A stretch of 64,000 bases of DNA from an uncultured Pseudomonadota bacterium (GCA_963778795.1 CAVZVU010000001.1:1777574-1841573), one strand, 5' to 3'; positions 38,698 to 48,127 are shown, counted from the first letter of the stretch. The notes: a model not told the origin generated them from the sequence alone. Made by a program: numbers and translations.

Positions 38698-40569
38698 GTG
38701 ATCACGGTCGGGAGCCGCGTGGGGGGGTACGCCGTGCTCCGGGAGCTGGGGCGGGGAGGCATGGGCAGGGTCTATCTCGCCCAGCACAACCGCATCGAGC
38801 GCCGCGCCGCGATCAAGGTGCTGCTGCCGGAGCTCACCACGCAGGCCACTGTCCTCGAGCGCTTCTTCACCGAGGCGCGCGCAACGTCGTCGATCCGCCA
38901 TCCCGGGATCGTCGAAGTGTTCGACTGCGACGTCGTCGACGAGCACGCGTTCATCGTGATGGAGTACCTCGAGGGCGAGTCGCTCGCGAGCTACATCCGA
39001 CGCATCTCGGGGCTCACGCGGGATCTCCCCTTCGCGCTGGGGTTGGTCGGGCAGATCGCGCAGGCGCTGGCCGCCGCCCACGCGTGCGGCATCGTCCACC
39101 GCGATCTCAAGCCTGACAACGTGTTCCTGTGCGTCAGCCCGACGAGCCCTCGCGTGGTCGTCAAGGTGCTCGACTTCGGTATCGCCAAGCTCCTCCAGCG
39201 AACGGATACGACGGAGACGCGCCCGGGGACGGTCATGGGAACGCCCGCGTACATGTCTCCCGAGCAGTGCCGCGGGGGCACCCGGGTCATCGACGCGCGT
39301 TCGGACATCTACTCCCTGGGATGCATCCTGTACGAGGCGATCTGCGGGCGCCGGACGTTCATGCGCGATGGGCTCGGGGAGATGCTCCTCGCGCAGGTGA
39401 TGGACCGGCCGGAGTCGCCGCTCTCGCTGGTGCCGGATCTTCCCTTGCGCGTCAACACGCTGGTGATGCGGATGCTCGCCAAGGAGCCGAGCGCGCGCCC
39501 GCAGACGATGGATGAGGTGCTCGGGGAGATCATCAAGTGCCTCAAAGGCATCGGCACGCAGGTGCCGCTGGGAGAGATCGTGCCCGCCGTGCCCGTGACC
39601 CTTCAGCAGTCGGCCCGTTCTGCCGCCGCCGACAACGACGAGCGGGTCACCTCGTTGCCGCCGGCTCCGGCCACGCCGCCCGCGCTCGCAGCCGCGTTGG
39701 ACAGCGCGTCGCGGCCGGTGTCCGCGTCGCCGCCGCCTGGATCCAGCGAGGCGCCCCAGTCGTCGCCGGCGTCGCCGCCCGCGTCGGATCAGGCACCGGA
39801 GGATGCAGTCCCCGGTGACACCCGCTTGGGGTTCGGGGGCGCGCGGATGGGAATCAGGGGCACCCAGTTCTTGCCGCCTGCCGAAACGGGCGATACGGAG
39901 TTCCAGGAGGCCGGCCTCACTCCCATTCCGACCACGTTCCGTGAGACGGTCGGCGAGGCGCTGCCCCGTCGGCTGGCCTCGCCCGGGGTTCGCTCCGCCG
40001 CGCTGCTCGGGGCCGTGGCGGTGGTCGCGACCATCGCGGTCGTCGCGGTGTTGCGGTCGCGGGCCGCCCGGCATCCGATCGAGGTCGTCGACGACACCGG
40101 CTTGACTCGATCGCCAACTGGAACTGGCGATGCGCCGCGGGGGGCGGGGACGACGGCCGCCCTCCCCACGCCCGATAACGTGACCATCGAGGTCCGCGGC
40201 CTGCCCTCGGGCGCGCGGGTCTTCCTCGACGGCGTGCCCACCGCGGAGCTCCCGCTGCGGCTGCCGCGCGGCGATCGGAGCCGCGTACTTTCATTGCGCG
40301 CCACCGGCTACCAGGAACGCGTCCTGGAGATCGACGGTCTGCGCGACCGGGTGATCGACGTGGTGATGGTGCCGGTGGTGCCGGTGGCGACGGCGCCCGC
40401 CAAAGGTCCAAACGTGGTCGGCAGCGCCCCGGCAAGGACGCCGCAGGGCGCGTACGATCGCGCGATCGGGACCTCACGAAGGCGGCCGCATCGCGAAGAT
40501 GGCTCGAAGAGCAAGTCAAACGGGGGCCCAGATCCAAATCGTGACGTGGGAATCATCACTGATATCTGA
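38698..40569 (+). CDS. Ser/Thr protein kinase with TM helix and C-terminal PEGA domain
   Basis: [61 protein letters not shown]-like [21 protein letters not shown]. 623-aa intact ORF. Confidence 0.85.
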
Positions 40570-40593
40570 CCGACGACCGGGCCGCGCGCGGCG

Positions 40594-44600: not shown

Positions 44601-47600
44601 GCGGGCGCCAGCGCCAGCCCCGCCCCGGTCTGCCCGGTGGCGCTGGCGGTCAGGGTCACCGAGCCGCCGGGGGTAGCGGCGAGGGTCAGCGTCCCGGTGC
44701 GCGCCCCGGCGGCCGAGGGACGGAACGAAGCGCCGATGATGCACGTACCGCCGCCGGCGACCGCCACGGTGCAGGTGTTGGTGCCGACGATCAGCTCGGT
44801 CTGGTTGCTGTTGGTCAGCGCGGGCACGCCGGTGGCGACGTCGCCGGTATTGGTGATCGTCCAGGTGAAGGTGCTGCTGGTCGCGTTGACGACGAGGGTC
44901 CCGAAGTTGTTCGTCGTCGTGCCCGAGAGCAGCGCTGGGCGCTGGCCCCTGGCGGTCAGCGGCAGCGGTGTCGGCGTGCCGCCGGTGGCTGCACTGGCGG
45001 CCAGCGTGGCGGTCTGGCGCGCCTGCCGCCGCGGCGGTGAACCTGACCCGGATCGTGCAGCTCGCGCCTCCGGCCAAGATGGTGGTGCCGGTGACGCACT
45101 CGCCGGTGGTCGGGGCCACCAACGCAAATCCGGAGCCGGTGGCGGTGGTCAGCGTCACCGTCACCGGCGTCGTCGCTTGCTGTCCGCTGTTGGTGAGCAG
45201 GTAGGTCTCGACCACGTTGCCGGCGACCAGCACGTTGCCGAAGTTGGTCGACGAACCGGTGGCCGGCGCCAGCCCCAGACCGGCGGCCAACTGTCCGTCG
45301 GCGGTCGCGGTGAACGTGACCGATCCACCGGGCGACGCCGTCACCGTGAGCGTACCGGTGCGCGAGTTCATGCCCGACGGACGGAACGCCACGCCAATCA
45401 TGCAGCTCCCGCCGCCGGCGATGGGCCCGGTGCAGCTGTTCGAGGTGACGAGGACCTCGACCGTGTTGCTGTTGGTCAGCATCGGCTGGCCGGTCATGAC
45501 GTCGCCGCTATTGAAGATGGTCCAGTTGGCGGTGCCGGTGGTGTTGCCGATGACCACCGTGCCGTAGTTGTTGCTGTTCGTGCCGGTGAGCGCGGACACC
45601 CGCTGCCCGCCGCCGGTCAACCCCAGCGTGGCGGTTCCGCCGGTGGTCGCGCTCGCGCCCAGCGTCGCGCTCTGCGTCCCCGCCACGGTCGGCGCGAAGC
45701 GGACGCGCACGCTGCAGCTGCCACCGCCGGGCAGCGTGGTCACGCCGTTCATGCACTCGCCGGTGACCGGCGCGCAGCAGCGTGAACCCCGAGCCCGCGG
45801 CGGAGCTCAGCGTCAGCCCGATCGCCGACGTGGTCTGGTCGCCGGTGTTGTTCACGACGAAGGTCTTGTCGGAGGTCGAGCCGACCAGCACGTTACCGAA
45901 CGCCGTCGACGAGCCGCTGGCCACCGTCACGGCGAGCCGGGCGATGTTCTGTGCGGCGCCGGAGAACGCGGCGACCGCCGCGCCGCCGGGCGTGGCGCTG
46001 ACGCTCAGGCTGGCGGTCTTGTTGCCCGCCGACTTGGGCGCGAACGCCACGACGACCATGCAGGTGCTGCCGCCGGGCAGCGCGCCCGCGCAGTTGCTGG
46101 TCACGATCGTGAAGTCGCTGGCGTTGGCGCCGCCAAGGGCCGCGGCCAGCGCGGTGCCGCTGCCCGCCGGCACGCCGCCGGTGTTGGTCACCGTGATGGT
46201 CTGGTTGGCGCTGGTCGCGCCGACCAGCGTGCTGGGGAAGGTGAAGGCGGTCGGATTGGCGACCAGCGACGCCGAGGCGAGGCCGGTTCCGGTCAGCGAG
46301 ACCGTCGTCGTGCTGCCCCCGCGTCGCCGCGAACTGCAGCGTGCCGCTCATGGGACCGGGCGCCGTCGGCGCGAAGCGGACGGTCACCGAGCAGGAGGTG
46401 GAGGGCGCCAGCATCATCGTGTTGCAGCCGTTGGTGACGATCGCAAACACCGTCGAGCCGACGATGCTCGCGGTGACCGGTCCGGTCGTCGACTGCCCGG
46501 AGTTGCTGACGGTGAAGGTGGCCACCTGGCTGACCGTGCCCTGCTCGACGCCGCGGAAGTCGAATGACGGCACATTCGGCGTCAGGACCCCGGGGGTGAG
46601 CCCGATGCCCGAGAGGCTCGCGGTGGTCATGCCGCCAGCCGTGGCGCTCACGGTGAGCGTCGCCGCCTTTGCCCCCATCGACGTCGGCGCGAAGCGGACG
46701 AGGATCATGCAGCTCCCTTTGCCCGGGATGGCCGCGGTGCAGCCGTTGCCGCCCGCCGGGATCGAGAACTGCGCGCTGTCGGCGCCGCCGATGGTCACGC
46801 TGGGCACCGAGCTGGGGATGTCACCGTCGTTCGTAGACCTGGAACGGGACGGTGGGGCTCGCACCAACCGTCACGGAGTTGAAGTTGTTCGTGGCGGGCG
46901 ACAGCCGCAGCGCGGGATTTGCCAGCGACGTCCCCAAGAGCTGGGCCGTCGCCGTCCCCCTCCCAACTCCGTCAGCGAGAGCGTCGCCAGTTTTGTCCCC
47001 GGCGTCGTGGGCACGAACTGAACCGTCAGCGTGCAGGTGGCATTGGCGACCAGCGTCTTGCCCGTACAGGTGTCGCCGGTGAGGATGGTGAAGTCGGGGG
47101 TCGACATCGCCGGAAGCAACGTCGCGGTTGGCGCCTGACCGCTGTTCGTCGCCGTGAACTGCTTCGAGCTCCCGGGCAGGCCTTGTTGCACCGATCCAAA
47201 ATCCCACGGGCTGGGCGTCAGGACGACCAAGCTCTTGGTGACGGACGAGCCCGAGAGCTGGGCGACGGCGCTGCCGCCGGGGTCGGCGGAGACCTGGAGC
47301 GACACCGATTTGTTGCCCAGGCTGGTGGGCACGAAGCGCGCGGTGATCTGACAGGTCTGCATAGAGGCGAGGATCTGGCCCTTGCACCCGTCAGCGGTGA
47401 TCCCGAAGTTGGGCGCGTCGGCGCCGACCAGCGACGCCGCCGCGATCATGCCGCTGATGCCCTCGCCGGTGTTCTTCACCGTGAATGTCCGGTCGATGCT
47501 GTTCGCCGGCATGACCACCAATCCGAAGCTCTGCGTGAGCGGATCGATCGTCAGCGTTCCGGGCGTGATCCCCTCGCCCAGCAGCGACGCCACCGCATCG

Positions 47601-48127
47601 AAGCCGGTGGCATGGAAGGCGACCGAGCCCTGCTGCTTGCCGACAACGGTGGGCGAGAAGACGACGAACACGCGACAGCTCGTGCCGGCGGGGAGAGGAT
47701 TGCCGCCGCACTCGTCGGTGATCGAAAACCCGGCGCCGGCGCTGGCGGCGTCGAGCACCACGCTGACCCCGTCGCTGGTGCTACCGCCGTCGTTGCTGAC
47801 GGTGAACGTCGCGCTCATGCTGGCGGTGCCGACCGGTACGAGACTGAAGTCGTGCGAGGTGCTGTCGACGACCAGGTGCGCGGGCGCGGGCCGGTCGGTG
47901 GACCCGTCGCCGTCGGCGTGGCCGTCGGTGCGGTCGATTGTCGCGTCGCGGTCGAGCGACGCGCCGTCGCCCGTGCCGATCTGGCTCGCGTCCTCGTTGA
48001 GCCTCCCGCCGCTGTCCATCGGTTCGGTGCACGACGAAGCTGTCAGCAGGACGGACAGGCAAACCAAGATCGCTCGACTAAGAGATCGATATGCTTTGCC
48101 CGCCGCCAGTCCCCCTCCAATAAACAT
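41648..48127 (-). CDS. giant (~2,150 aa) cell-surface lipoprotein built from tandem choice-of-anchor-D-like repeat domains; many frameshifts
   Basis: N-terminus MFIGGGLAAGKAYRSLSRAILVCLSVLLTASSC. About seven ~235-aa units each contain two ~110-aa domains with the recurring pattern FG.V.VG...TQTFVLTNTGQQAT..V.VTLT....GFA.V....GDC......LAGGASCTIHV.FTAPG.G...A.L.....G and GQRPA.L.G.T..NFGT.VVGATS...TWT..N.GD..TG.P.L.N....E..V..N.CT...AGG..C.I.VSF.P....GAR.G.L.L.A.PGG. Signal is spread over ORFs 41648.., 41811.., 44574.., 45508.., 45893.., 46821.. and 46871..48127. Confidence 0.75.

Follow-up and report, generated by a model that had tools for sequence, protein, structure and literature searches.

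A kinase, a TPR/PEGA protein, and a giant lipoprotein gene

The DNA analyzed here (the window) is a 64,000-nucleotide stretch, one strand read 5′ to 3′, from an uncultured Pseudomonadota bacterium (GCA_963778795.1, CAVZVU010000001.1:1777574-1841573), and our subject is a three-gene cassette spanning positions 38698-48127. A Hanks-type Ser/Thr kinase gene (38698..40569; 623 amino acid residues) and a gene for a membrane protein with tetratricopeptide repeats (TPRs) and a PEGA domain (40541..41626; 361 residues) lie on the plus strand; a giant lipoprotein gene (41648..48127; 2,158 residues after correction) lies on the minus strand, tail-to-tail with the other two. The positions, strands, and convergent layout had been given correctly in an earlier note on this DNA, which proposed that a kinase and a TPR protein, both bearing PEGA domains, keep a surface adhesin or S-layer-like protein under phospho-signaling control. 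G+C content varies from 64 to 73% over the window, and that of the cassette is unremarkable against it. Read directly from the sequence, the gap between the convergent stop codons is 21 nucleotides (nt) long (41627..41647) and mostly occupied by a perfect 14-nt GC palindrome (GCCGGGCGCCCGGC, 41632-41645) which may form a bidirectional hairpin; the corresponding gaps in three of the related loci described below (L001, L004, and L005) are 20-36 nt long and GC-rich in look, and their sequence is not conserved. A promoter scan of the cassette returned nothing promoter-like, and a terminator scan found a single candidate, within the kinase gene, whereas shuffled controls give more.

The kinase domain (residues 11-271, predicted to be cytoplasmic) scores 157.2 bits against Pfam Pkinase (cut-off 31.7; E 7e-46), and all of the catalytic motifs are in place (GRGGMG at residue 18, AAIK at 37, HRD at 134, DFG at 159, and SPE at 187); by profile score and motifs alike, this is an intact, active-looking Hanks-type (eukaryotic-like) Ser/Thr kinase. 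A linker of about 140 residues (~286-428) rich in Pro, Ala, and Ser joins the kinase domain to a single strong hydrophobic membrane helix (residues 429-457 by hydropathy), beyond which extends a predicted extracytoplasmic tail of about 166 residues (458-623). The PEGA domain which the earlier note gave to the kinase does not pass Pfam: the PEGA-like beta-sandwich at about residues 485-569 (40150..40404, plus strand), whose pattern is conserved in orthologues, scores 13.6 bits (E 0.063) against a gathering cut-off of 20.8, and Pfam PEGA at E <= 0.1 is absent from all four of the orthologous or related kinases scanned. The domain was recovered by way of its homologues. A phmmer search of 1.8 billion representative proteins with kinase residues 440-623 gave 304 matches at E <= 1e-3, many of the proteins matching several times; of ten matched proteins scanned, seven carry 5 to 11 Pfam PEGA stretches (Pfam E 1e-62 to 1e-145; phmmer E 7e-26 to 1e-14), two more are kinases that Pfam does not call as PEGA, and the last is without any Pfam match. 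Because the matches include these multi-stretch Pfam PEGA proteins, we conclude by homology that the kinase does carry a real but divergent PEGA domain. The tail found no match among PDB sequences.

The kinase ends in a conserved peptide, I-T-D-I (40555..40566, plus strand), identified by comparison of orthologues. The terminus (A/I)ITDI is kept in the window, L001, L004, L005, L008, and L014, and hence in both the clade of the window and the sister clade described below, while the preceding ~50 residues vary; other PEGA-bearing kinases terminate in AITDI or in peptides resembling it, of the form [IFY]-x-D-[ILM]. Since ITDI is kept even where the next gene does not overlap it, the constraint acts through the kinase reading frame. 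The peptide could be a docking motif, either for the adjoining TPR or for a periplasmic PDZ protease.

The TPR/PEGA gene overlaps the kinase gene by 29 nt, as it also does in L005. This figure depends on the start codon, which we placed at GTG 40541 because homologues conserve the N-terminal motif TWxxSxISDRR; alternative starts lie at 40499 and 40616, and the database copy of the protein (P0001) begins at the latter. The protein comprises a signal peptide, three TPRs (P0001 residues 23-112; 40682..40951), a PEGA beta-sandwich (P0001 residues 115-181; 40958..41158), and two membrane helices (41267..41527), all on the plus strand. The PEGA domain passes Pfam with 33.4 bits against the cut-off of 20.8 (E 4e-8) and is modeled as a confident all-beta domain of seven strands, so that for this protein the PEGA assignment stood as first made. 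The individual Pfam TPR models each fall just below their own cut-offs, but the profile of the protein's own family matches consensus TPR proteins among the PDB sequences (E 6e-17), and an AlphaFold model built on the family alignment (mean predicted local distance difference test score, pLDDT, 76.9; about 95 over the TPRs and above 90 over PEGA) shows three TPRs with paired helices and the beta-sandwich, then a Pro/Ala linker that is disordered, and a hairpin of two membrane helices. By Foldseek the TPR portion groups with three-repeat peptide-binding TPRs (CTPR3, SGT/Sgt2, Hop, CHIP, Tah1, and LpoP), and the Foldseek search of the TPR/PEGA model also returned a carboxypeptidase D structure, probably a reflection of the beta-sandwich. 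Recognized by profile and by modeled fold, the helix-turn-helix repeats are thus TPRs, in agreement with the earlier assignment. The hairpin, which is supported by hydropathy as well as by the family alignment and the model, has a conserved Cys-bearing loop; over 41267-41623 the alignment reveals four invariant cysteines in all around the two membrane helices, and the C-terminal tail has two invariant cysteines and an invariant C-x-L-x-F terminus ending in Phe.

The giant protein, read after the corrections explained in the next section, begins with a signal peptide and predicted lipobox (residues 1-33; 48029..48127, minus strand) consisting of a basic N-region, a hydrophobic core (hydropathy peak at residues 15-34), and a conserved Cys33. 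The lipobox reads LLTASSC in the window, LLSASSC in L001, and SLGSC in L005, each followed by TEP; it is thus a canonical L-G-S-C in L005, and an A-S-S-C with an atypical -3 residue in the window and L001. With that qualification, a putative lipoprotein signal, as reported by the earlier note, is present and conserved in all three. An Asp/Gly-rich linker of ~50 residues follows, and then a run which the choice-of-anchor-D model (NF012200) matches in 19 stretches where about 14 had been counted (683.8 bits for a cut-off of 45, E 3.5e-210); each piece of the uncorrected gene also exceeds the cut-off, and Pfam ASH, HYDIN/VesB-like immunoglobulin (Ig), Cep192_D4, and DUF1573 match as well (E 1e-45 to 1e-49 for the ASH-type families). 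Comparison of the repeats resolves the last twelve domains into six tandem two-domain units of ~220 residues each (residues 840-2158; 41651..45607, minus strand), the five in-frame units being 52-79% identical to the first. One pair of cysteines, 10-13 residues apart, recurs in every one of these disulphide-bearing, predicted Ig-like domains. An AlphaFold model of two domains (pLDDT 78) has as its nearest folds, by Foldseek, ciliary central-pair ASH/PapD-like Ig proteins, the SPD-2 domain of CEP192, VesC, and HYDIN; a three-domain piece found no match among PDB sequences. Pfam and NCBIfam scans of the giant protein found no C-terminal sorting signal or other domain type, and as these scans gave Ig-like repeat families only, the S-layer-like reading is unsupported. 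By our estimate the protein would be too long to stand upright in the periplasm; it more likely forms a surface fiber or lies along the membrane, and a surface repeat protein or adhesin would be a fair reading.

The giant orthologue in L005, a metagenome-assembled genome (MAG) of a member of the Polyangia (11170-16905, minus strand), is shorter, with 1,911 residues, and its C-terminus, distal to the lipid anchor, has a Pfam Vgb_lyase region, possibly a beta-propeller, which the window protein does not have.

Frame breaks in the giant gene and across the window

The giant gene had been described as a gene of about 6.5 kb, and it is one as 2,158 codons after correction; in the assembly it is not a single open reading frame (ORF), since stop-free segments and a third-position GC plot reveal five frame switches. 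Our alignment reference was L001, an intact orthologue on a short-read metagenome contig with 88% nucleotide identity to the window. Against it the window has five single-base insertions or deletions (indels): -1 near 46961, where a run of six Gs has become five, and +1 near 46834, 46322, 45775, and 45018. All of the remaining indels in the gene are multiples of three, correction of the five leaves 2,158 codons free of stops, and third-position GC is high throughout.

We think that the five indels are most probably Nanopore-type consensus or assembly errors, and that the gene is probably intact in the organism, because i) the giant gene is not the only one split in the window: a GH3 gene (27302-29279) is in three or more pieces, a Peripla_BP_4 gene (11336-12800) and a GH2 gene (29414-32442) are in two each with the Pfam profile continuing over the break, and a P-type ATPase gene (52133-54830) is probably split too; ii) breaks are frequent, with apparent frameshifts abundant at 1-32500 and 50600-62900, and a codon-usage Viterbi path through the 64 kb switches frame directly on the same strand ~55 times (some share of these switches being true operon boundaries), in the first 30 kb mostly every few hundred bases, more densely than within the giant gene; iii) the orthologues are intact, at about 2,155 residues including the signal peptide in L001/L002/L010 and at the 1,911 residues already given in L005/L006; iv) selection appears normal, the ratio of nonsynonymous to synonymous divergence (dN/dS) between the window and L001 being 0.36 for the giant gene, 0.32 for the kinase, and 0.39 for the TPR/PEGA gene, with dS 0.24-0.31 in all three; and v) related assemblies behave alike, in that contigs with names of the form 'contig_N' (L004, L007, L019, and L020) show similarly fragmented gene calls. 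One of these contigs is from a Microflora Danica MAG, and the Microflora Danica assemblies are Nanopore-only and Medaka-polished, their low coding density being linked by the authors to low coverage (PMC12313526). The point that weighs against assembly error is that just one of the five indels falls in a homopolymer run.

That four of the five lie outside long homopolymer runs could instead favor a true pseudogene, recently inactivated in this organism, as could the presence of five frame-disrupting indels in the first place, and the source record, which calls just a 398-residue fragment (P0189). We nevertheless regard inactivation as quite improbable: unrelated genes of the window are broken as densely or more so, a corrected frame of this length contains no stops and no other indel out of phase, third-position GC stays high, and dN/dS is lower downstream of the breaks (0.19-0.52) than upstream (0.63), so that constraint has not been relaxed after them. 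The frameshifts that the earlier note would have taken as the mark of a pseudogene are therefore present in the assembly as a matter of form, but indel errors throughout the assembly explain them best. Genes for surface repeat proteins are among the classic cases of phase variation, and the indel in the G5/G6 run might suggest that the breaks are biological switches, whether by phase variation or by programmed frameshifting of a surface protein. We rejected this explanation, to which we attach next to no probability, because breaks of the same kind occur in unrelated glycosidase and transporter genes across the window; moreover, the run of Gs is a short one, none of the other four sites is a repeat, and the orthologous frames are uninterrupted. 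In long-read metagenome assemblies of this kind, a frameshifted giant gene is not callable as a pseudogene without a check of the reads, and this applies to the window as a whole.

Conservation of the gene neighborhood

We gathered relatives starting from the TPR/PEGA protein, taking contigs at decreasing identity. The check that the earlier note had proposed, conservation of the three-gene neighborhood, came out in its favor: the full trio is found in the same layout in six lineages (the window; L001/L002/L010; L004/L011; L007; L005/L006/L012; and L019), with TPR/PEGA identity down to about 51-54% and with flanks that are all unrelated. Nucleotide similarity between the window and L001, L002, L004, and L007 begins at ~38593 and ends at ~48250-48260, so that it takes in ~105 nt before the start of the kinase gene and ~130 nt before that of the giant gene. 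By tblastx, five of the trio lineages share no flank, and the annotated neighbors in the sixth, L019, differ from those in the others. A reciprocal, word-indexed homologue search from the N-terminus of the giant protein, which returned only seven proteins and missed known intact orthologues, again found the kinase pair adjoining, in L019. A profile scan of the GTDB species-representative genomes for TPR/PEGA yielded six loci, four of them found previously.

Farther out, the giant gene drops away. In a sister clade (L008/L013 and L014; 38% identity) the choice-of-anchor-D gene is absent, and the gene immediately upstream of the kinase, which reads the same way, encodes a lipoprotein of ~1,200 residues (L008 3380-6979 and L014 4227-7769, both plus strand) with about a dozen beta-rich repeats of ~100 residues; the L008 and L014 copies are 58% identical. 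We considered and rejected these lipoproteins as relatives of the giant protein: they have no NCBIfam match and only a sub-threshold Pfam fn3_6 match, and we treat them as a different family. The most distant loci (L016, L017, and L018; 25-38% identity) have the kinase and TPR/PEGA genes alone. The order kinase then TPR/PEGA is constant in every lineage examined, and because the pair persists in distant loci while the trio, or another lipoprotein, varies around it, comparison of these loci indicates that the stable core unit is a two-gene kinase-TPR/PEGA operon. A large repeat lipoprotein adjoins that pair in 8 of 11 lineages, by way of two unrelated lipoprotein families.

How much of this association reflects joint function can be argued in more than one way. 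The giant lipoprotein and the kinase pair may simply be neighbors, the pair sensing something else, the giant protein acting independently, and the block being kept by descent or hitch-hiking. We take this seriously as a minority possibility: the convergent orientation is in keeping with it, as is the pair without a giant neighbor in the three most distant loci, and the lipoprotein of L008/L014 is not only of an unrelated family but also on the other side of the kinase. It does not sit well with a block intact down to a junction of 20-36 nt in six lineages, both flanks differing in each, nor with the fact that, in the sister clade, a large repeat lipoprotein adjoins the pair a second time and independently.

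The sharp edges and differing flanks, despite a dS of only ~0.25-0.3 between the window and L001, suggest that the cassette has been relocated or else that the genomes are very fluid. The cassette might accordingly be a horizontally moving unit, and the conservation of the block the product of recent transfer among Polyangia, an explanation that would be compatible with a functional link. The low dS, combined with the absence of flank similarity on both sides in all pairs compared and with boundaries so close to the two outer start codons, speaks for such transfer. We nonetheless hold it to be improbable, since no Pfam-recognizable integrase or transposase occurs among the gene calls of the related loci (tRNA genes and flanking repeats not having been searched for), the GC content is ordinary, and 'recent' cannot be judged from the dS of the cassette without the genome-wide divergence of these MAGs. 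Nor was an empty site found when the flanking Zn-dependent dehydrogenase was compared with JGI metagenomes: its best relatives there, 72-74% identical, share just the TetR-dehydrogenase pair, and none has the cassette or the left flank.

Upstream of the cassette, at a distance of 2.6 kb, the window holds a second and much larger Ser/Thr kinase gene (32828-36100, minus strand; ~1,090 residues with an AAA_16 ATPase-like region), and between the two lie an MFS transporter gene (36480-37685) and an ORF of 216 residues without a family match (37848-38498).

Relation to known systems and a proposed function

The nearest analogy we can offer is PpkA, a single-pass Hanks-type kinase with a separately encoded periplasmic partner. 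In Pseudomonas the periplasmic domain of PpkA is activated by TagR, with TagQST, including an outer-membrane lipoprotein, sensing the signal; in Serratia PpkA is activated by the periplasmic RtkS (PMC6082577). The likeness to PpkA with TagQRST (Pseudomonas aeruginosa) or RtkS (Serratia marcescens) is one of arrangement, and includes a lipoprotein, which is part of the input in Pseudomonas and a neighbor of the kinase pair here; the TPR/PEGA model has a weak Foldseek match to the RtkS-PpkA crystal structure 9k1u (E 4e-3). The periplasmic domains of the cassette are, however, PEGA and TPR, and its lipoprotein is a 19-domain giant rather than a small anchor. Because no Fha, PppA, or type VI secretion system (T6SS) core genes were found among the flanking window ORFs scanned or the gene calls of the related loci, the cassette, judged by its gene content, is not a member of the T6SS threonine phosphorylation pathway.

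The other parts likewise resemble known families up to a point. The TPR/PEGA partner and the kinase stand on opposite sides of the cut-off that defines PEGA proteins (PF08308), as described above, and the TPR model of the partner superposes on the three-repeat peptide-binding TPRs of the Hop, CHIP, and SGT type. The choice-of-anchor D family takes its name from the variety of sorting signals at the C-termini of its members; all 19 domains of the giant protein match it, but the window protein has no C-terminal anchor, its N-terminal lipid being the sole predicted one, and it is composed solely of this domain, including the six near-identical two-domain units. With fibrillar adhesins the giant protein shares a long tandem run of Ig-like domains and a distal end that varies between orthologues, as in the Vgb_lyase region of L005; it differs from them in that the window protein has no recognizable binding tip domain, and in its predicted anchor, a lipoprotein signal rather than LPXTG, a type I or type V secretion signal, or a type IX secretion system signal.

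The locus is, we conclude, a real, uncharacterized envelope gene cluster, kept as a trio in soil myxobacterial relatives, and as such not a surprise. With moderate confidence we favor the view that the three genes make up an envelope cassette conserved in uncultured Polyangia/Myxococcales, in which a kinase-TPR/PEGA receptor complex would cooperate with the giant lipoprotein. Made together, the kinase and its TPR/PEGA partner would assemble into a single receptor of the inner membrane that presents two PEGA domains to the periplasm, the two-helix hairpin holding the secreted TPR and PEGA module in the membrane. The TPR might hold the C-terminal tail of the kinase, a three-repeat TPR encoded next door being a natural candidate for binding ITDI. 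Its counterpart would be the large repeat lipoprotein, in the envelope or at the cell surface, whose presence, load, or binding state would be read in the periplasm and converted into phosphorylation in the cytoplasm. By analogy with PpkA, the lipoprotein would more probably be the input to the kinase than its target; the coupling of the kinase pair to a large repeat lipoprotein is plausible.

Several observations weigh against this reading. The giant gene is convergent with the kinase pair and therefore not co-transcribed with it; the kinase pair occurs without a choice-of-anchor-D giant gene in five more distant lineages (L008, L014, L016, L017, and L018), standing alone in the three most distant of these; no FHA-domain protein, phosphatase, or other candidate substrate was found among the flanking ORFs scanned, which were not every ORF of the window; and the conservation of the block could come partly from transfer as a unit, rather than from selection for joint function. 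A literature search, which returned nothing relevant on PEGA kinases or on choice-of-anchor-D function, gave no backing to the view, cited in the earlier note, that PEGA-kinase pairs sense envelope states, and phosphorylation control of the giant protein, which that note had suggested, is a hypothesis only.

We wish also to set out a bolder version, which we consider unlikely, though somewhat less so than recent transfer as the source of the conserved block: that ITDI docks in the TPR groove of its translationally coupled partner; that the resulting two-PEGA receptor reads a rod-like Ig-repeat lipoprotein, perhaps tens of nanometers long; and that the whole is a portable sensor-plus-fiber cassette among Polyangia. 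If true, this would be an undescribed design of bacterial receptor kinase.

The cassette combines a bacterial receptor Ser/Thr kinase, an accessory protein in the periplasm, and a lipoprotein associated with them, each part being of a known family; apart from the input hypothesis and the lesson about assemblies, there is little in it beyond ordinary domain families. Of the very many Hanks-type kinases that myxobacteria encode, few have known inputs, and a fixed periplasmic partner together with a recurring large lipoprotein neighbor provides a concrete, testable input hypothesis for one kinase family.

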